A stretch of 64,000 nucleotides of DNA from an uncultured Pseudomonadota bacterium (GCA_902793435.1 CADBDF010000001.1:69131-133130); one strand, 5' to 3'. Numbered from the stretch's first letter, positions 6,445-49,837 are shown. A program made the numbers and translations. The notes: generated from the sequence alone by a model not told the origin.

Positions 6445-9400
6445 ATGGCATACCCAAAAACAGAAACAAAAACAGACTTTTCAAAACTTGAACGTGAAAT
6501 AATGGAGTTTTGGCGTCGTGATGATACTTTCCATAAATCGTTGAATAAAACAAAATTAGGACATCCGTTTTCTTTCTATGATGGGCCACCGTTTGCCAAT
6601 GGTTTGCCACACTGGGGGCATTTAGGGGTTTCTGCGGTCAAAGATATGGTTTGCCGTTATCATACTATGCGTGGCGAATATGTTGAACGCGCATTGGGTT
6701 GGGATTGTCACGGGCTTCCAGCAGAGGCATCTGTTGAGAAAAAACAAGGTCGCACAGCCAAAGATATTGTGGCATTGGACGGTATTACACATTTTTGTGA
6801 TTTATGCCGCCAGGATGTTATGACATATTCTAATGAGTGGTTAAAGTTTATTGAACGCGTCGGTCGTTGGGTTGATGGTGGCGACGAATTTGGATATCGC
6901 ACCATGGACAGAAACTTTATGGAATCTGTGATGTGGGCAATGAAGGAATTGCATAAGAAAGGTTTGTTATACAAAGATTTCAAAGTTAATCCATACGATT
7001 GGAAATTGGGTACCGTATTATCAAACAGTGAAGCATCAAGCGAATATCAAGACGTCGTTGATGATACTGTGACCGTTTGGTTCGAATTAGAAAATGGCGA
7101 CAGGGCGATTGCATGGACAACAACACCATGGACATTGCCAGCAAATTCTGCATTGGCGGTGAATAATAATATGCGCTATGTTCGTATGAAACACGATGAT
7201 GGACATGTTTATGTTTTGGCAGAAAGTCGCGTTAAAGCATACGAAAAGATTTTTGCAAATTCTGAAAATCTGGGAACGGTTATGGGTGCCGAATTGGTTG
7301 GTTTGCACTATAAACCAATATTCCCATACTATACAGATTTAGCCAAAGACGGTCATGGTTTATACACAATTATTTCTGGCGATTATGTCAGCGACAGCGA
7401 CGGTACCGGTATCGTGCATATTGCACCAGCGTATGGTGAAGACGACTATATCGTTGCCAAGGCAATCGACCCACAATTTCCTGTGATTTTAAATGTTGAT
7501 GATTATGGTAATTTTGATTCAACGGTCACAGAGTGGGCGGGTGAAAATATTTTCGTTGCAAACCCAAAGATTATCGATTGGTTGCGCCAAAATGGAATAT
7601 TGGTTAAAAAAGACCAACATAAACACAGTTATCCATACGGCCCACGCAGTAAAGAAAAATTAATCTATCGCGCAACAGATGCTTGGTATGTTGATGTGCC
7701 AAAGATTCGCGACAGATTGGTTGAAATAACCAAAACACAAACAACATGGACATCCGCGGGTAATCGTTTCTTGTCATGGATTGAAAATGCGCGTCCATGG
7801 GGTATTTCGCGCAATCGTTTCTGGGGTGTGCCATTACCAATTTGGGAACGGGACGGCGAATACAAAATCTTTGGTTCGGTCGCAGAATTAGAAGAATTCT
7901 TTGGTGTAAAAATTGATGATTTACACAGACCAACATTGGATAAATTGGAAAAAGACGGATGGAAAAGAATTCCAGATGTTTTAGATTGTTGGTTTGAATC
8001 GGGTTCTATGCCATTTGCATCTTTGCATTATCCCTTTGAAAATAAAGATTTGTTCGATAAAACTTTCCCGGCGGATTATATTATCGAAGGTCAAGACCAA
8101 ACACGCGGTTGGTTCTATCATTTGATGATTATGTCCGTTGCGTTGTTTGATAAACCTGCGTTCCGCGTTGTATCTGCAAATGGTATGGTTGTAGATGAAA
8201 ACAAACGCAAGTTTTCAAAATCTTTGCAAAACTTTGTAAATCCCGAAGAACAGTTAAACGCGTACGGTGCAGACGCAATTAGACTTTTCATATTGGGCAG
8301 TAATTTCTTGAAAGCAGAACCTGTGCCTGTGGATAAAGAAGGCAAAGTGTTTGTTGATTCAATTAAAACAATTTTGACGCCGTTGTGGAATGCGTACCAT
8401 TTCTTTACATTGTATGCAAATGCAGGAAACGTGACCGCAGAATTAAAAACAACATCTCAAAATGTTTTGGATAAATATATAATTGCTGAATTAAACGAAG
8501 TTATCCGTATTGCAACAAATTCTTTGGACGAATATAAACCAGATGTTGCAATCAAAGAATTTGTTCGTTTCTTGGATGTATTAAACAACTGGTATATCCG
8601 TCGCGGACGCGCACGTTTCTGGGACGAAGAGAAGGACGCATTTAATACCTTGTATTATGTATTGGTGAATTTTACCAAGATTTTGGCACCTTTTGCGCCT
8701 TTTATCAGTGAATATATCTATAAAAATTTAACAGGTGCAGAATCTGTGCATTTGACCGATTGGCCAACAGTTGTGGATGTTGATAACTCTGTTGTCCAAG
8801 ATATGCGCCATGTTCAATCGATTGTTTCGGTTGGAAACCAGTTGCGCGAACAATATAAATTACCAAATCGTCTGCCTTTGCAAGACATGACAATTGCAGG
8901 TAAAAACGCACAACAATATGCCGATATTATCCGCGATGAATTAAATGTAAAGTCTGTAAATTTCGTTGATAATATTGCATCTGTGGCTGATTCATTTGTA
9001 TATTTAATCACACCAAAGATTGGTGCGCGTTTGGGTTCTGCATTAAAAAATATTATTCCGGCTGTGAAACAGGGTAATTACAAAATCGATGGCGATAAAT
9101 TATTGGTTGGTGATTACACATTGAACAGTGACGAATTTGAAAGTCGTTTGACTGTAAAATCTGGTATCACAGGTGCCGCATTACCAGACAGTACCGCTGT
9201 CGTGGTATTAAACACAAATGTCACCCCAGATTTATTAGTCGAAGGTTTGGCGAATAATATATTGCGCTTTATCCAAGATTCGCGTAAAGCCGCAAATCTG
9301 GACGTGTCCGACAGAATCAATTTGGTATATAGCGGTGACAACGATATAGAAAACGCAATCAATACACACCGAGATATGATTGTGCGTAATGCGTTAATTG

Positions 9401-9483
9401 TTAATTTGTCGAAGGCATCAGCCACACAATTTGAAACAGAAATTGACGGACATAAATTCGCAATCAAAATTGAAAAAGCATAA
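6445..9483 (+). CDS. ileS: isoleucyl-tRNA synthetase, type 2 (eukaryote-like)
   Basis: FSFYDGPPFANGLPHWGHL (HIGH region in the type-2 style) and the KFSKSL KMSKS motif. 1012 aa with no C-terminal Cys cluster. Confidence 0.95.
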   Translation: MAYPKTETKTDFSKLEREIMEFWRRDDTFHKSLNKTKLGHPFSFYDGPPFANGLPHWGHLGVSAVKDMVCRYHTMRGEYVERALGWDCHGLPAEASVEKKQGRTAKDIVALDGITHFCDLCRQDVMTYSNEWLKFIERVGRWVDGGDEFGYRTMDRNFMESVMWAMKELHKKGLLYKDFKVNPYDWKLGTVLSNSEASSEYQDVVDDTVTVWFELENGDRAIAWTTTPWTLPANSALAVNNNMRYVRMKHDDGHVYVLAESRVKAYEKIFANSENLGTVMGAELVGLHYKPIFPYYTDLAKDGHGLYTIISGDYVSDSDGTGIVHIAPAYGEDDYIVAKAIDPQFPVILNVDDYGNFDSTVTEWAGENIFVANPKIIDWLRQNGILVKKDQHKHSYPYGPRSKEKLIYRATDAWYVDVPKIRDRLVEITKTQTTWTSAGNRFLSWIENARPWGISRNRFWGVPLPIWERDGEYKIFGSVAELEEFFGVKIDDLHRPTLDKLEKDGWKRIPDVLDCWFESGSMPFASLHYPFENKDLFDKTFPADYIIEGQDQTRGWFYHLMIMSVALFDKPAFRVVSANGMVVDENKRKFSKSLQNFVNPEEQLNAYGADAIRLFILGSNFLKAEPVPVDKEGKVFVDSIKTILTPLWNAYHFFTLYANAGNVTAELKTTSQNVLDKYIIAELNEVIRIATNSLDEYKPDVAIKEFVRFLDVLNNWYIRRGRARFWDEEKDAFNTLYYVLVNFTKILAPFAPFISEYIYKNLTGAESVHLTDWPTVVDVDNSVVQDMRHVQSIVSVGNQLREQYKLPNRLPLQDMTIAGKNAQQYADIIRDELNVKSVNFVDNIASVADSFVYLITPKIGARLGSALKNIIPAVKQGNYKIDGDKLLVGDYTLNSDEFESRLTVKSGITGAALPDSTAVVVLNTNVTPDLLVEGLANNILRFIQDSRKAANLDVSDRINLVYSGDNDIENAINTHRDMIVRNALIVNLSKASATQFETEIDGHKFAIKIEKA

Positions 9484-9490
9484 AAAAACA

Positions 9491-10141
9491 ATGATGACGC
9501 CGGATATTTATTTTCAAAATGTTCCACCAACATTGGATATGAATATCCGGTCTGAATTGTATTCGGTAAATGAATTTACTTTTGCGGTTGCGGTTATATT
9601 ATCTGCCCAGGCGACAGATAAAAAAGTAAATGAGGTAACACCCGAATTGTTCCGCGTTGCACCAACACCAAATAAAATGTTGGATTTGGGAATTGATGGG
9701 TTAAAGAAACATATTCGCGTAATTTCTTTTTTTAACAACAAAGCAAACAATATTATCAAACTGGCTGAAAAACTGGCGGATGGGCAGGGGACAAATTGGA
9801 AATTTCCAGCAAAATATCACGCACGCGATGAATTGATGAAATTGCCGGGGATAGGTCAAAAGACCGCAAATGTTATAACAAATGTTTTGTGGGGCGCACC
9901 CAATATTGGTGTGGATACGCATGTTTTCCGCAACGCACACCGGTATGGTTGGGTTAGTGACGCCGACAACACACCGGAAAAAGTGGAAGCGAAATTGCGT
10001 AAAAAAATACCGGAAAAATATCATGATATTGTAAATCATGTTATGGTTTTGCATGGTCGATATACTTGCAAGGCACTGCGTCCAAAATGCGATATGTGCC
10101 CAGTTCAAAAATGGTGCGATGCAAAGGATAAAAATATATAA
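9491..10141 (+). CDS. nth: endonuclease III
   Basis: LPGIGQKTANVI helix-hairpin-helix and the C-terminal 4Fe-4S cluster CKALRPKCDMCPVQKWC. The ORF-track start at 9398 lies inside ileS. The ATG at 9491, 8 nt after the ileS stop, is used instead. Confidence 0.9.
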   Translation: MMTPDIYFQNVPPTLDMNIRSELYSVNEFTFAVAVILSAQATDKKVNEVTPELFRVAPTPNKMLDLGIDGLKKHIRVISFFNNKANNIIKLAEKLADGQGTNWKFPAKYHARDELMKLPGIGQKTANVITNVLWGAPNIGVDTHVFRNAHRYGWVSDADNTPEKVEAKLRKKIPEKYHDIVNHVMVLHGRYTCKALRPKCDMCPVQKWCDAKDKNI

Positions 10142-10143
10142 AA

Positions 10144-10168
10144 AACACCGGCATTTGCCGGTGTTTTT
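10144..10168. terminator. bidirectional rho-independent terminator
   Basis: ACACCGGC-ATTT-GCCGGTGT flanked by an A-run and a T-run, between convergent nth and the OMP gene. The core is the reverse complement of the hairpin at 5899-5923. Confidence 0.75.
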
Positions 10169-10180
10169 TAAACTTTTTGA

Positions 10181-10801
10181 TTAAAAGTTTAGTTTTATAC
10201 CAGTTTGAATAGATATTACATTTTTTATAATTTCATCTTTAGATGGTATAAAATCCCGTAGTGTTGTATACCAATCAACTGTTTCATTCAATTGTATATT
10301 TGTACCAAATTTTAATACTATCATAGTGGTACTTTCTTTTTCATCTACTGTTATAAAGTCTGGAATAGACCAATAGCTACGTTCTGTTCCTTTACCAACA
10401 CCGATTCCAAAAATTAAATCTGTTCTTTTACTATCTTTATCATCAACCCTTATATAATTGTCAAACCCTATATTCCATGCAGAAAAACCAGATTCTGCAT
10501 TCTTTATATAACTGTTGGTAACAGAAGCACTTGTGTCAAACGCATAATCATATGCAATGGCTACCCCGCCATTCCAAATATTATTTTTATCTCCAAATTT
10601 AACACCTGCTTCTAATCCAATACCAAAATAGCTATCAGAAAAATGTAATCCTGAATTATCCATGACATCTTCCATATAAGGACTATATGATATAAAGTCA
10701 AAATTTATATTCGCGCCTATATAAGGTCTAACAACTGCCTCATCAGCAATAGCTGGTGTTATACAAAATGTACATAATGCAGGTATAAGTATTTTTTTCA
10801 T
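10181..10801 (-). CDS. small outer-membrane beta-barrel protein
   Basis: Signal peptide MKKILIPALCTFCITPAIA, alternating aromatic/Gly-rich strands, and a C-terminal ...GIKLNF ending in Phe. AAGGAG lies 7 nt upstream of the ATG. Confidence 0.6.
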   Translation of the reverse strand: MKKILIPALCTFCITPAIADEAVVRPYIGANINFDFISYSPYMEDVMDNSGLHFSDSYFGIGLEAGVKFGDKNNIWNGGVAIAYDYAFDTSASVTNSYIKNAESGFSAWNIGFDNYIRVDDKDSKRTDLIFGIGVGKGTERSYWSIPDFITVDEKESTTMIVLKFGTNIQLNETVDWYTTLRDFIPSKDEIIKNVISIQTGIKLNF

Positions 10802-10827
10802 ATTTAAACTCCTTGAATTGTTATGTT

Positions 10828-11000
10828 AAAAAAACCGCTAATAAAAAGCGGTTGGAGTTTAAGAACAATTGGAAAAAATTGCGTGGTTTATTCGTTATAA
10901 ACTTATTCGCCACACTCCAACCTTGGTTATGTTGGAGTTTTTTACGTCTTCTCTTGACGTTTTCCAATGGGTTCTTAAGCCCAATCCTTTTTATAAGGAT
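10828..11000 (-). promoter_or_regulatory. structured 5' leader RNA ending in an intrinsic terminator (copy 1 of a two-copy family; riboswitch/attenuator candidate)
   Basis: On the minus strand, a P1 helix encloses three hairpins. A third ACUCCAACC then overlaps the terminator AACCGC-loop-GCGGUU-U7, followed by the RBS and the OMP ATG. The same architecture, with compensatory changes, occurs at 49575-49740. Confidence 0.5.
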
Positions 11001-11010
11001 GTTTGCATTG

Positions 11011-11050
11011 TAAAATAAAAAGCGCTGGAAATCCAGTGCTTTTTATTTTC
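11011..11050 (-). terminator. terminator downstream of pheT
   Basis: Inverted repeat AGCGCTGG-AAAT-CCAGTGCT flanked by A/T runs, 16 nt after the pheT stop. There is one non-Watson-Crick position in the minus-strand RNA. Confidence 0.5.
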
Positions 11051-46331: not shown

Positions 46332-46907
46332 TTAGAAATTGTGTGTTATACCAATTCCGTAAAATGCGTAAGAATTATTTTCTTCGGCGGTATTTGCGTT
46401 TGAGAAATGTTGAATAAATAATTCCGTTGCCCATTCTTTGTTGATGTTATAACCAAACATAACTTTGAATTGGAAAACCAACTTTGCGCCCAAGCGCGCG
46501 TTTTCTTTGGCCTGTAATCCAACACCGGCACCGGTTCCCATATAAATTCGTTTATAGCGGAACAGGGCAATATCTTCGGTGACATATCCAATTGGAATTG
46601 TGTAATCTTGCCATTTCCAACCGTTTTTTTCGCCCAACCCAAGTGTCACAGATATATTTAAATTTCTGCGTGCTGGAATACGAAAAAAAGATGTCGGTTG
46701 CGAATATGTGATTGTGCCAATATAAAACGGAACAGGCTTTACAGGTGGTGGTAATAAAATACCGGTATCAAAACCTTGGCCAATACCATAAAACATTTGA
46801 TTTTGATAATTTCCTGTAAATGGGTTGTTGTCAGGTAAAAACATAGATTCAGCCATTGCCATTGTTGGCATCAGTATTGGTAATAAAAATAGTAATTTTT
46901 GTTTCAT
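46332..46907 (-). CDS. PagL-like lipid A deacylase / acyloxyacyl hydrolase family outer-membrane protein
   Basis: Signal peptide MKQKLLFLLPILMPTMAMA, beta-barrel pattern, C-terminal QHFSNANTAEENN...GITHNF with an H-x-S-N motif as in PagL. ATG 46907 is preferred to the ORF-track start at 46943. Confidence 0.5.
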   Translation of the reverse strand: MKQKLLFLLPILMPTMAMAESMFLPDNNPFTGNYQNQMFYGIGQGFDTGILLPPPVKPVPFYIGTITYSQPTSFFRIPARRNLNISVTLGLGEKNGWKWQDYTIPIGYVTEDIALFRYKRIYMGTGAGVGLQAKENARLGAKLVFQFKVMFGYNINKEWATELFIQHFSNANTAEENNSYAFYGIGITHNF

Positions 46908-46991
46908 GGGGTATATTTTATCATATTTTGGAATATAATACAAATTGAATAAAAGTAAAAAAAGACCGAAATAAAAATCGGTCGAATATCA

Positions 46992-47065
46992 TGGTGCCCT
47001 AAGCAAGAATCGGACTTGCGACTCGTCCTTACCAAGGACGTGTTTTACCACTAGACTATTAGGGC
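46992..47065 (-). tRNA. tRNA-Thr (anticodon GGU)
   Basis: The minus strand reads GCCCTAA-TA-GTCT-AGTGGTAA-AACA-C-... with anticodon stem CGTCC/GGACG and loop TTGGTAA. T arm GCAAG-TCCGATT-CTTGC, acceptor TTAGGGC, then A-CCA. There is one C:A mismatch in the D stem, and the T loop has C at position 55. Confidence 0.72.
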
Positions 47066-47160
47066 GACAAGGGCTATTATAGCCGTCGTTTAATAAAAAT
47101 CAACACAAAAACCATTTTTTACTGGATTTTTATTTTTTTGCATCTATAATGCACAACATT

Positions 47161-47237
47161 GGCGGAGTAGCTCAGCTGGTTAGAGCAGCGGAATCATAAT
47201 CCGCGTGTCGGGGGTCCGAGTCCCTCCTCCGCTACCA
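47161..47237 (+). tRNA. tRNA with CAU anticodon (elongator Met or Ile2-lysidine)
   Basis: GGCGGAG-TA-GCTC-AGCTGGTTA-GAGC-A-GCGGA-ATCATAA-TCCGC-GTGTC-GGGGG-TCCGAGT-CCCTC-CTCCGCT-A-CCA. G1:U72 wobble, and the T loop has C at position 55. Confidence 0.8.
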
Positions 47238-47431
47238 AGATTAACGACCATTTTTGGTCGTTTTTTTTATAAAGCAGGGACGAGGACCCCTGGGCCGACA
47301 AAATAGCAGGTTTTGCAAATGTAATGTGGCAAAACCGTCGCGATTTGGAAAGGGGCCCACGAATGAAAAGAGTGGGAATATACAGTCCCTCCTCCGCTAC
47401 CAAGATTAACGACCATTTTTGGTCGTTTTTT
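47219..47431 (+). repeat. 48-bp perfect direct repeat (tRNA 3' end plus terminator) flanking a 117-bp GC-rich insert
   Basis: AGTCCCTCCTCCGCTACCAAGATTAACGACCATTTTTGGTCGTTTTTT occurs at 47219-47266 and again at 47384-47431. The repeat starts inside the T loop of the tRNA. Confidence 0.9.
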
Positions 47432-47514
47432 GTTTTATAGAGTAATTTGTTATTGACGATTGTGTTTTTTTGTGTATATTTTATTGGTTAGATTTAAGAT
47501 ATAGGGGATTTGTT

Positions 47515-49179
47515 ATGCTGTCGGTTAAAGAACAAAAAGATATTGTTGATTTGGTAAAAAAATATAAACGTGCGCGTTTGCGTTTGGCGGATCATTATAA
47601 CTCACGCAGTGCCAATCAAATGAAAACAATGTGTTTAAAGCAGGCAGAAAAATATTTTGATACTATGAATCGTATGATAGCAAACAATCCTGATACACTT
47701 ACAAATACAGATATTCAATGTTTTGCTTTGTTAATTGACGGTTTTGAACAAATGCGTCGCAATCGCTTGTTGGGTGAATTGCAAAAGTATGCGTCTTTTG
47801 ATGTGCAGGCTTATGTTGGTGCATATAATCGTAATGGTTTTTTTAAAAATGCTAAAAATGTGACAGAAATGAGTCCTGAGGATTTAAGAAAAAGACAAAC
47901 AAAATATATATCTGCGCGTGCAAAGGTTAAAAAAAATGCTACCAACACACATAGTGTTGAAATGTTGGATATTATTTGTGATGAAGTAGTGGAATTGTCG
48001 CGGGCTGTTGTTAATAAAACTGTGAAACTTACACCTGAATATGCCAGTGCTGCTTTGGGATTATTGGAAACAGTTGGTATAATTGACGATAAAAAAACAC
48101 AGGCAATTAATATATTAAATGATTGGTTGAAAAATAATAATCATGCAGTTAAAGAAAATGTCGAACCAAAGAAATCTTGGTTTGGCAAATTGAAAGATAA
48201 ATTTAATTCTTGGCATGATGAAAAAAAATCTGGGCACGAAGAAAAAAAATCAAAAGAACCCAAAAATATTATAAAAAATAAAGCAGAGGTGCGTGCTGAA
48301 AAACGCGATGCACGCAGGGCAAATTTTGAACAGGCTGCATCTGTTTTGAAAAAAACGGTATCTGGTGTTGTTGATGAATTTCAAGATGTTGTTCAATCTG
48401 GGGTTGAAACAATTAATGCAAAACGTGCGGAACATAAAGCGGGGCGTGATGAAAAAAAACGCAATCGTGAAATTATTCGTGATGCAGAAAAAACTTCGCG
48501 CGAACATTGGAAAAATTTGAAAAAACAACAAAAATCATCGCAAGAACCAAAACGCACCAAAAAACATTTTTGGACCGGCTGGGTTTCTGTGGTTGCCGCA
48601 GGTGCTTTGTTGGCAGGTTTGTTAAAAATTGGTGTTGATGCAGAAAGAAATTATAAAGATGCAAAAATTGTAAAAAAAGAAGTAAAGGCAAAACCTGTGG
48701 CGCAAAATGTTAAAAAGCAAGTTGCACCAACAGTTGATTCTGCGTATGTGGTTGCTATGAAAAATTATTATAATTCGACTATGGACATTATCGCAGGTCA
48801 AAATAAAAAGGCTGATGTTTTATCAAAAATAAACAACCAAGTTCAATCAGGCAATATTGTTTTAAGTGATTATATTTCTGCGGAACGCGTTGCGTATGCG
48901 TATTTCATGTATCGTGAATATGGTTTTAATATTGATGTGTTGAATTTGGCGGTAAATTCAAACGAAAAACTGACCGATGCACAAAATGCTGAATTGATTC
49001 AGGTTGTTTTAAATGCTGGCGAACGCGGGGCAGGTGTTAAAAAAATGGCTCAGCAACGCGTTGAATCACGTGGTGGCAGTTTGGGCAAACACAGTAAATT
49101 TGAACATGCAACACGCGCACAACAACGCGCATATTTGGTTAATCGCGGTGTGTTGAAAAAAGTTCAACATAACAGATAA
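47515..49179 (+). CDS. hypothetical Lys-rich protein with one central TM segment
   Basis: 554 aa from ATG 47515. A highly basic middle region (KKSGHEEKKSKEPK...KRNREI...), a TM segment HFWTGWVSVVAAGALLAGLL, and a C-terminal domain of unknown type. Confidence 0.5.
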   Translation: MLSVKEQKDIVDLVKKYKRARLRLADHYNSRSANQMKTMCLKQAEKYFDTMNRMIANNPDTLTNTDIQCFALLIDGFEQMRRNRLLGELQKYASFDVQAYVGAYNRNGFFKNAKNVTEMSPEDLRKRQTKYISARAKVKKNATNTHSVEMLDIICDEVVELSRAVVNKTVKLTPEYASAALGLLETVGIIDDKKTQAINILNDWLKNNNHAVKENVEPKKSWFGKLKDKFNSWHDEKKSGHEEKKSKEPKNIIKNKAEVRAEKRDARRANFEQAASVLKKTVSGVVDEFQDVVQSGVETINAKRAEHKAGRDEKKRNREIIRDAEKTSREHWKNLKKQQKSSQEPKRTKKHFWTGWVSVVAAGALLAGLLKIGVDAERNYKDAKIVKKEVKAKPVAQNVKKQVAPTVDSAYVVAMKNYYNSTMDIIAGQNKKADVLSKINNQVQSGNIVLSDYISAERVAYAYFMYREYGFNIDVLNLAVNSNEKLTDAQNAELIQVVLNAGERGAGVKKMAQQRVESRGGSLGKHSKFEHATRAQQRAYLVNRGVLKKVQHNR

Positions 49180-49187
49180 TTTTAAAA

Positions 49188-49547
49188 TTATTTATGTTGA
49201 TTTAATATTAAATTACGGATTGGTTTAATGGATTCTTGATTTATAAGTTCCAAATTGTTTTTTGTTTTTTGCGATATGTTCGCGTTAATTTTGTTTGTAG
49301 ATACAATTGAAATAATTGTATTCAGTTGCAATGCAAAATCATCGTTCATATTGCGGAGTTGAAATGGATATGATTTTAAATATTCTGTGATAATATCATC
49401 ATATATTTTATCAAAATCGTGCGCGACAGAGGGTGGAAGTTTGCATCGAAATTCGTCTAATTTTTTATGCATTATTTTTAGTGGTTTTTTATTTTCGGGG
49501 GCTGATACAGAATCGTGATAACAAACTTTTTTTATTGGGCGACGCAT
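49188..49547 (-). CDS. hypothetical protein
   Basis: The ORF-track start is 49559. The second ATG at 49547 has GGAG 6 nt upstream and matches the RBS spacing of the other leader-controlled gene. No motif recognised. Confidence 0.45.
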   Translation of the reverse strand: MRRPIKKVCYHDSVSAPENKKPLKIMHKKLDEFRCKLPPSVAHDFDKIYDDIITEYLKSYPFQLRNMNDDFALQLNTIISIVSTNKINANISQKTKNNLELINQESIKPIRNLILNQHK

Positions 49548-49574
49548 TGAAATCTCCATTATTTTTATAAAAAC

Positions 49575-49740
49575 AAAAAAACCACCAAAAAATAAAAGGT
49601 GGTTGGAGTCTCATAACAATCAGTAAGATTTGTGTGCTTATTCGATATATTCACACACTCCAACCAATGTTGGAGTTTTTACGCCACTCTGGCGCTTACT
49701 GCTGGGTTATGAGGCCCGATTCCAAGAACACCTTGGAACA
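49575..49740 (-). promoter_or_regulatory. structured 5' leader RNA ending in an intrinsic terminator (copy 2 of the two-copy family)
   Basis: On the minus strand: 5' hairpin UUCCAAG/CUUGGAA; GGGC; P1 CUCAUAAC..CAGUAAG / CUUACUG..GUUAUGAG; P2 CGCCA-GAG-UGGCG; ACUCCAAC-AUUG-GUUGGAGU; P4 GUGUGUG...CACACA. A third ACUCCAACC overlaps the terminator AACCACC-loop-GGUGGUU-U7. Confidence 0.5.
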
Positions 49741-49837
49741 CATTTGTATTTTATGTTATGAATTGTCAAAAATCAAGTTTTTGGTTAAAAAATCTTGCAA
49801 ACTGTATTTTTTGATTATATCATATTTGTATGTTTTA

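Follow-up and report, generated by a model that had tools for sequence, protein, structure and literature searches.

A pseudoknotted leader RNA with a predicted terminator switch: a candidate cis-regulatory family of gut Alphaproteobacteria

Introduction

Among the riboswitches that use a terminator as expression platform, the c-di-GMP-I (GEMM) class combines a structured, covarying domain of the 5' UTR with a terminator that can lose its 5' arm to an alternative helix. It occurs in many copies per genome, occasionally as tandem units, and precedes very diverse genes, including those of surface proteins. In attenuators of the trp type, segment 2 of the leader pairs with segment 1 or with segment 3, the latter being common to the terminator. 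Finally, in anti-SD/anti-anti-SD switches, CUCC elements are complementary to a GGAG Shine-Dalgarno (SD) sequence, and an internal GGAG segment competes for these CUCC elements.

The leader RNA described here shares all these traits, and its nearest counterpart in behaviour among terminator-platform riboswitches is the GEMM class. It was found in a stretch of 64,000 nucleotides from an uncultured Pseudomonadota bacterium (GCA_902793435.1 CADBDF010000001.1:69131-133130), hereafter called the window, which is nearly identical to contig CADCKW010000001.1 of the MAG RUG14746. Its homologues were found almost exclusively in MAGs from rumen, faeces and termite gut that bear the label Ca. Enterousia, gut 'Rickettsiales bacterium' or 'Alphaproteobacteria bacterium'. 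Living in the gut and so far uncultured, Ca. Enterousia and its relatives have genomes of 0.75-1.0 Mb, devoid of TCA cycle and respiratory chain (PMC12306168). On the basis of sequence comparisons, we propose that the leader, which precedes a gene for an outer-membrane protein (OMP), is probably a member of a new cis-regulatory family in which a conditional terminator would be governed by a pseudoknotted core.

Results

The window contains two copies of a structured leader

Copy 1 occupies positions 10828-11005 of the window, on the minus strand, and comprises the following elements.

11007-11012, minus: -10-like box TACAAT, about 7 nt upstream of the 5' hairpin (sequence reading)
10984-11000, minus: 5' terminal hairpin AUCCUU-AUAAA-AAGGAU (folding)
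10859-10983, minus: structured core (covariance-model match, 131.1 bits)
10979-10982, minus: GGGC (sequence reading)
10980-10982 with 10969-10971, minus: stem A, GGG with CCC (covariation)
10971-10978 with 10859-10866, minus: P1a, 5' strand with 3' strand (covariation)
10960-10968 with 10868-10876, minus: P1b, 5' strand with 3' strand (covariation)
10944-10960, minus: P2 (covariation)
10931-10938 with 10914-10921, minus: P3
10883-10913, minus: P4 (covariation)
10878-10881 with 10866-10869, minus: stem B, CAAU with AUUG (covariation)
10979 with 10882, minus: junction pair, C with G (covariation)
10931-10938, minus: 5' element ACUCCAAC, switch segment 1 and 5' strand of P3
10914-10922, minus: middle element GGUUGGAGU, segment 2, which can pair with the 5' or the 3' element
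10850-10858, minus: 3' element ACUCCAACC, segment 3, overlapping the 5' arm of the terminator
10854-10862, minus: UUAAACUCC, segment 3 extended by the 3' end of P1a, complementary to the SD region
10828-10853, minus: intrinsic terminator AACCGC-UUUUUAUUA-GCGGUU followed by U7 (terminator scan and family covariation)
10804-10814, minus: SD sequence AAGGAGUUUAA
10181-10814, minus: SD and putatively controlled ORF, ATG at 10799-10801, encoding a 206-aa outer-membrane beta-barrel protein

Copy 2 occupies positions 49575-49738, also on the minus strand.

49748-49776, minus: promoter-like site TTGATT-17 nt-TAAAAT (promoter scan)
49575-49738, minus: leader (covariance-model match, 130.8 bits)
49720-49738, minus: 5' hairpin
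49669-49676, minus: 5' element
49657-49665, minus: middle element
49601-49609, minus: 3' element
49575-49602, minus: terminator
49188-49559, minus: putatively controlled ORF, 123 aa as listed, no function assigned

The initial annotation had described copy 1 as a defined multi-helix RNA of the minus strand, and all the elements that it listed were recovered in place. The minimum-energy fold (ViennaRNA) is composed of the 5' hairpin, a multi-branched domain and the terminator. Its energy of -52 kcal/mol (z = -5.9) was reached by 0/200 shuffled sequences, which average -29.8. Copy 2, folded from 49575 to 49745, displays the same architecture at -63 kcal/mol (z = -6.0), again with 0/200 shuffles as stable. 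A terminator scan independently called the terminator of copy 1 (10853-10833 plus the U run). Transcription of copy 1 probably starts near 11001-11005; a strict promoter scan did not call the promoter of this copy, whose -35 region is weak. A long, perfect, A/T-flanked hairpin of 17 pairs, which looks like a bidirectional terminator, is found at 11012-11049, between the stop codon of pheT and this promoter, and also precedes the orthologous leaders in loci L143 and L149.

The 206-aa product of the ORF behind copy 1 matches the Pfam domain OMP_b-brl (PF13505, E = 3.2e-08). Behind copy 2, the ORF as called mechanically begins with the ATG at 49559, which lies inside an SD-like AUGGAG; the ATG at 49545-49547, located 7 nt after GGAG (in UGGAG), is a likelier start and would give a protein of 119 aa. 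In the minimum-energy fold of copy 2, the 3' element CUCCA pairs with this SD UGGAG, around the terminator.

Copy 2 lies at the edge of a small block (46332-49559) that adjoins two divergent tRNA genes (46995-47065, minus strand, and 47161-47234, plus strand) and contains an ORF for 569 residues rich in Lys and Glu (47470-49179) as well as the 123-aa ORF placed under the leader. tRNA genes are also observed near leaders in L107, L125 and L145, and this proximity hints at island-like accessory regions. A 102-aa paralogue of the 123-aa protein, with the common motif KFRKKLP.SV...F, is encoded in L145 (11720-12025, minus strand), L156 and L157. Since this paralogue stands behind a different leader copy, the leaders accompany a small paralogous gene family.

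A family of leaders restricted to one bacterial lineage

The motif AACTCCAAC-N(3-25)-GTTGGAGTG occurs exactly twice in the window, for 0 expected. Used as a collection pattern, AACTCCAAC-N-GTTGGAGTG proved too loose and gave mostly chance matches, which were filtered before stricter patterns were used. The pattern scans covered species-representative genomes, metagenomes and viral contigs. No pattern match was obtained in the viral contigs, so the leader is not a phage element.

A covariance model, R1, was built from 34 sequences (150 positions, 41 pairs). It matched the window at two places only, with 131.1 and 130.8 bits; the third score was 15 bits (E = 0.07). This weak third match is located at 10121-10200 on the plus strand, between a 247-aa ORF (9398-10141, plus strand) and the end of the convergent OMP gene (10181). 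It appears to be no more than a GC-rich hairpin surrounded by A/T-rich sequence, and is probably a terminator common to both genes and not a family member.

A covariance-model search of related genomes, a check that the initial annotation had suggested, yielded 168 full-length members in at least 118 loci, with the pairings kept. Of these, 64 come from the first loci and 104 from loci collected with a different pattern. The mean column identity of the family is about 58-63%, with compensatory pairs. In several genomes, for example RUG12675 and Red_deer_3_mag_193, at least 5-6 copies were counted on the fetched pieces alone.

The sequence had not been recognised at the outset as any known riboswitch class, and the comparison with Rfam 15, whose riboswitch, leader and sRNA classes include the T-box, leads to the same view. 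At gathering thresholds, the whole window gave 4 tRNAs and nothing else. Permissive scans of both copies returned sub-threshold matches only, the best with 32 bits for a threshold of 48 and on the opposite strand; we discarded these weak matches (SpF25, LhrC, leaders), which are terminator-like or A/U-rich. In 20 further loci, no Rfam match overlapped a family member, and a full-text literature search found no description of this leader RNA. The family is a previously undescribed RNA of about 170 nt, new to Rfam and to the searchable literature, while its attenuator or riboswitch logic is of a known kind.

Covariation supports an interlocked core

The nested fold, made of P1a, P1b, P2, P3, P4 and the terminator, is paired in 90.3% of the cells of the 64-sequence alignment, with double changes in 33/41 pairs. 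The 104 independent sequences give 87.7% and 32/41 pairs, respectively. In both sets, structures slid by 1-3 columns are paired in only 33-52% of cells, and 0/500 shuffles reach the observed covariation scores. Covariation thus supports P1a, P1b, P2, P4 and the terminator as helices of the predicted RNA. Compensatory changes had been noticed between the two copies of the window, whose P1, P2 and P4 differ in sequence yet remain complementary, and they turn out to extend to the whole family.

Two details of the structure as first drawn have to be revised. The P4 helix does covary, but not in its original register: the supported P4 starts one or two nucleotides later, and the extension that depended on a G:U pair (G127-C176 and U128.G175) is not conserved in the commoner GGAGG variant. 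As to the CCC and AUUG taken for bulges of P1, they are conserved and paired with GGG and CAAU, respectively.

The first of these pairings, stem A, joins the GGG located before the 5' strand of P1a to the CCC that follows this strand. It is paired in 95.5-97.9% of cases; G:C is replaced by A:U in 18 sequences, and the variants GGGG/CCUC, UGGG/CCUA, GUGG/CCAC and GGAA/UUCC are observed. In stem B, the CAAU that follows P4 pairs with the AUUG found between the 3' strands of P1b and P1a. It takes the form CUAU/AUAG in 15/64 sequences, and in the second set its second pair is U:A in 60 sequences and A:U in 29. An additional junction pair links the base after GGG to the base before CAAU (U:A 45, C:G 40, A.G 10, U.G 4, A:U 4; non-standard in 11 according to one tally). 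By corrected mutual information, this pair takes rank 8 among all pairs of columns, and it does not depend on the form taken by stem B. Copy 2 is an exception, with a stem B of only 3 bp and a C.A mismatch as junction pair.

The junction pair crosses P1a and so makes the predicted core pseudoknotted. Together with P1a and this pair, stems A and B can be drawn as a closed four-way junction, and stem A would form with P1a a classical H-type geometry. Stems A and B may belong, as pseudoknots, to the OFF fold described below and not to the ON fold, the structure of which is uncertain. Altogether, the family displays a conserved putative sensor domain with covarying helices and conserved junctions, as is the case for riboswitches. 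A pairing of GGG with the 3' CUCC, proposed by the minimum-energy fold and by RNAalifold, was also considered and rejected, because the GUGG/CCAC and GGAA/UUCC variants covary with the nearby CCC and not with the CUCC, which is invariant.

Two parts of the leader are highly conserved in sequence, namely the P4 loop motif GAAUA-N-GAAUAA and an A-rich tract before segment 1. The P4 loop (10888-10908 in the window) consists of two GAAUA(A) copies with a variable centre between them, which in some members, for example L122 and L140, takes the form of a short hairpin, and a minority variant, GAUAU...AAAUAA, covaries within the loop. This loop could serve as a binding site, make a tertiary contact or form a symmetric internal loop. 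In four members (L191:4372-4501, L217:1468-1592, L182:199-323 and L200:7451-7574), the P2 hairpin is absent and all else is kept; these variants all precede small proteins with similar N-termini (e.g. MSVILVDTKYFGQYFRKARR...).

Segment 2 is complementary to both of its neighbours

Across the family, segment 1 reads (A)CUCCAAC, segment 2 GGUUGGAG(U/G) and segment 3 (A/C)CUCCAACC; in the commoner variant, segment 2 ends with G and segment 3 begins with C. Segment 2 is complementary to segment 1, with which it forms P3, and to segment 3, the last bases of which start the terminator stem. The initial annotation had seen in this arrangement the logic of an attenuator or of a riboswitch expression platform, and the family data reinforce it. 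The 2:3 antiterminator helix is 99.9% paired. In the second set, its terminal pair (G:C 91, U:A 6, U.G 3, A:U 2) is paired in 99% of sequences, whereas the competing 1:2 pair is so in only 64%; in the first set, G:C has replaced U:A at this terminal position in 9 sequences. Moreover, the three segments have changed together in two independent lineages, giving CCUUCUGC / GCAGGAGG / CCUCCUGC in L138/L195 and CUCCUGG / GGUCAGGAGG / CCUCCUGACC in L124. As in riboswitches, the pairing of the expression platform with the putative sensor domain would exclude the terminator, as judged from the 2:3 covariation, the concerted changes and the overlap with the terminator.

The 1:2 and 2:3 pairings would thus define two folds. 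Given that the base of P4 adjoins segment 2 and the junction and that segment 3 follows the outer end of P1a, we infer that the 2:3 helix excludes P1a. By nearest-neighbour energies, the full leader is more stable in the terminator fold by 14.5 ± 3.9 kcal/mol, and the gap toward this OFF fold is still 9.8 ± 3.9 kcal/mol before the 3' arm of the terminator exists. With such a strong bias, read-through must be kinetic or effector-driven. When the 2:3 helix was enforced in folding, stems A and B appeared spontaneously as simple hairpins.

A possible second layer at the SD sequence

We also compared the SD sequences with the 3' element, using all the loci, as the window alone offers only 4 usable genes. 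GGAGUU is present in 16/29 leader-linked SDs versus 4/43 controls (P = 3e-5), and the base that follows GGAG varies with the one that precedes the 3' CUCC (P = 6e-5): the former is U in 18 cases and G in 1 with A-type 3' elements, U in 5 and G in 12 with C-type ones. In copy 1, UUAAACUCC and GGAGUUUAA are perfectly complementary over 9 nt. The excess of complementarity between SD and 3' element in matched over permuted combinations is modest (mean 5.93 vs 5.55 nt, P about 0.004), and the number of matches of at least 8 nt does not differ significantly between the two. The full GGAG occurs in only about 38% of downstream regions. These data would fit a masking of the SD by the free segment 3 in the OFF fold; a joint duplication of leaders and SDs could partly explain them.

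Leader module and downstream genes

The module has a constant order: a sigma-70-like promoter, the 5' hairpin, the structured core, the intrinsic terminator, a spacer of about 26 nt, then an SD and an ORF. A 5' hairpin of at least 5 bp, unrelated in sequence, is found directly upstream of the conserved UGGG in 63/64 members, and a TANNNT (-10-like) box at most 22 nt upstream of this hairpin in 57/64, most often together with a TTG-type -35. In 81/104 independent members, the leader is followed on the same strand by an ORF with its SD, at a median of 26 nt from the end of the model (IQR 22-31); the first set of 64 has a similar arrangement. As this gap leaves no room for a separate promoter, the genes must be transcribed through the terminator. 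The RNA thus lies, like riboswitches, in the 5' UTR and on the strand of the ORF, in line with its first description as a leader. G:U pairs are frequent and the model scores at most 30 bits on the reverse strand vs 131-157, which makes the structure strand-specific, i.e. RNA. No conserved leader peptide was found among the 168 members, 56 of which have no ATG-initiated ORF at all, the ORFs of the rest being scattered in length.

The downstream genes encode 131 distinct proteins, most of them without Pfam domain. The domains present include XRE-type HTH, OMP beta-barrels, Flg_new surface repeats and GT2/GT8 glycosyltransferases, then acyltransferase, EamA, GmrSD, UvrD-like helicase and others. 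According to a crude rule, 62/131 proteins have a signal-peptide-like N-terminus. These genes imply no single metabolite and would fit a global signal rather than a pathway.

Tandem promoter-hairpin-RNA-terminator units, two or three per locus and some without intervening ORF, are observed in L107 (6197-6833, minus strand, 3 copies), L128 (5040-6035, minus strand) and L136 (5660-6411, plus strand). The third copy of L136 is devoid of the 5' half and of P2 and looks degenerate.

Discussion

We propose the following model for the function of the leader. Transcription would start at the short protective 5' hairpin, and the next 125 nt or so would fold into a compact core made of P1a, P1b, P2, P3 and P4. 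This core would be locked by GGG/CCC, which encloses the 5' strand of P1a, and by CAAU/AUUG, which encloses the 3' strand of P1b, with one Watson-Crick pair joining both. Four segments would then act as a classical attenuator, the fourth being the 3' arm of the terminator, with the SD GGAG further downstream. In the OFF state, the core would form and segments 1 and 2 would pair as P3; with segment 3 left free, the terminator would form and transcription would stop about 26 nt before the ORF. In the molecules that escape termination, the CUCC of the free segment 3 could mask the SD. In the ON state, the core, or at least P1a, would be absent or opened and segments 2 and 3 would pair, thereby removing the 5' arm of the terminator and freeing the SD. 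Actual switching would be decided by the binding of an effector to the pseudoknotted core.

Our preference as to this effector is a tentative one and goes to a small molecule or an ion reporting a global state, i.e. to a riboswitch, a macromolecular factor being nearly as likely. One would then have a new riboswitch class, with a double-pseudoknotted aptamer that senses a global signal (second messenger, alarmone, ion or envelope precursor) and gates perhaps 25-30 transcription units in bacteria with less than 1 Mb of genome, a possibility that we regard as less than probable. The number of units was extrapolated from the 2 copies of the 64-kb window to genomes of 0.75-1.0 Mb (PMC12306168). 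Several observations count against the model as a whole: a restriction to one lineage is unusual for riboswitches sensing universal metabolites, the downstream genes are heterogeneous, the energies are biased toward the OFF fold and some members do without P2. The tandem units devoid of ORF could equally indicate a free-standing small RNA.

Part of these data would suit a macromolecular effector, which is possible without being probable. A lineage-specific RNA-binding antiterminator protein, or a trans RNA carrying GUUGGAG, would bind the free 5' CUCCAAC or the hairpins and leave segment 2 free for segment 3. The confinement of the family to one order, its many copies per genome, its heterogeneous regulon and its strongly OFF default fold speak for such a factor, for which the conserved single-stranded A-rich tract and CUCCAAC would make a suitable binding site. 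On the other hand, the core, with its double pseudoknot and nearly all its junction bases paired, is much more intricate than typical protein-binding leaders, no candidate regulator gene is consistently found beside the leaders, and the window has no other GTTGGAG site. One would also wonder whether the terminated transcript of about 165 nt could itself be a trans-acting sRNA, using its single-stranded AAACUCC(AACC) as an anti-SD seed on GGAG sites, with read-through as a secondary event. Each unit indeed has its own promoter and terminator, tandem arrays without ORFs in between exist in L107 (3 copies), L128 and L136, and the CUCC element is complementary to SDs. We nevertheless consider this unlikely: in most copies, only 22-31 nt separate the leader from a same-strand ORF, which leaves this ORF no space for its own promoter, the covariation of the SD with the element is found in cis, within one molecule, and a purely trans role would leave the strict three-way covariation of segments 1, 2 and 3 unexplained.

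The same covariation weighs on the assumption of a structured 5' UTR of constitutive type, which would serve stability or processing and contain a leaky terminator but no switch. The 2:3 complementarity would then be a by-product. Such a static element would account for an OFF fold much more stable than its alternative, and stems A and B and the junction pair do fit one compact fold. However, segments 2 and 3 have kept their pairing better than segments 1 and 2, and with compensatory changes, and a by-product would not track changes in three elements; we hold this explanation for improbable. A DNA-level repeat (MITE-like element, recombination site or attC-like element) is hardly credible. It could be evoked by the multiple copies, the inverted repeats and the position of several copies near tRNA genes, to which we add that CTCCAAC/GTTGGAG matches 6/7 positions of the integron core-site consensus. 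Random orientation, which had been named beforehand as a sign of a MITE, was looked at, and both orientation and spacing are fixed relative to the downstream ORFs. Moreover, copies within a genome diverge in sequence while their helices still pair, with many G:U pairs that would read C.A on the opposite strand, and promoter and terminator belong to the unit. An invertible DNA segment between inverted repeats was rejected as well, with 0/168 family matches flipped inside.

Should the riboswitch reading that we favour hold true, the class would cover roughly 3% of genes, mostly those of the secreted and surface proteome and of XRE regulators. With 2 copies per 64 kb, a few per cent of all genes may lie behind this leader design. 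A single RNA design in front of dozens of surface-protein, glycosyltransferase, defence and XRE genes would represent a major share of the regulatory capacity of these bacteria, and the family would give a direct handle on the control of the cell surface in reduced symbionts. With at least 168 sequences, an unusually clear covariation for both switch states and an interlocked core, it is a strong orphan candidate for the search of a ligand and of a structure.

A parallel can finally be drawn with the systems mentioned in the introduction and with two others. Unlike the GEMM class, the leader has no match in Rfam 15 and no known ligand, is limited to one alphaproteobacterial order and has a four-helix core locked by two pseudoknot-type helices. 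As in trp-type attenuators, both alternative pairings of segment 2 are supported by covariation; unlike them, it has no conserved leader peptide, and the decision seems to be set by a large structured domain and not by a stalled ribosome. With the anti-SD/anti-anti-SD switches it shares an SD that covaries with the 3' CUCC, but it combines this layer with a terminator, and its downstream SDs have the full GGAG in only about 38% of cases. Stem A with P1a recalls the H-type pseudoknots of the SAM-II and preQ1 aptamers, in which a distal strand pairs with the whole of a hairpin loop, with a linker of 1-2 nt, and an A-rich strand is available for minor-groove contacts. The leader differs from them by two interlocked units joined by a covarying Watson-Crick pair and by three inserted hairpins, and there is no homology. 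Lastly, the pneumococcal BOX and Neisseria Correia elements also occur upstream of genes, in high copy number and with stable RNA folds. Unlike these elements, the leaders have a fixed orientation and spacing and their own promoter and terminator, and the compensatory substitutions among their paralogues imply that selection acts on the RNA structure.
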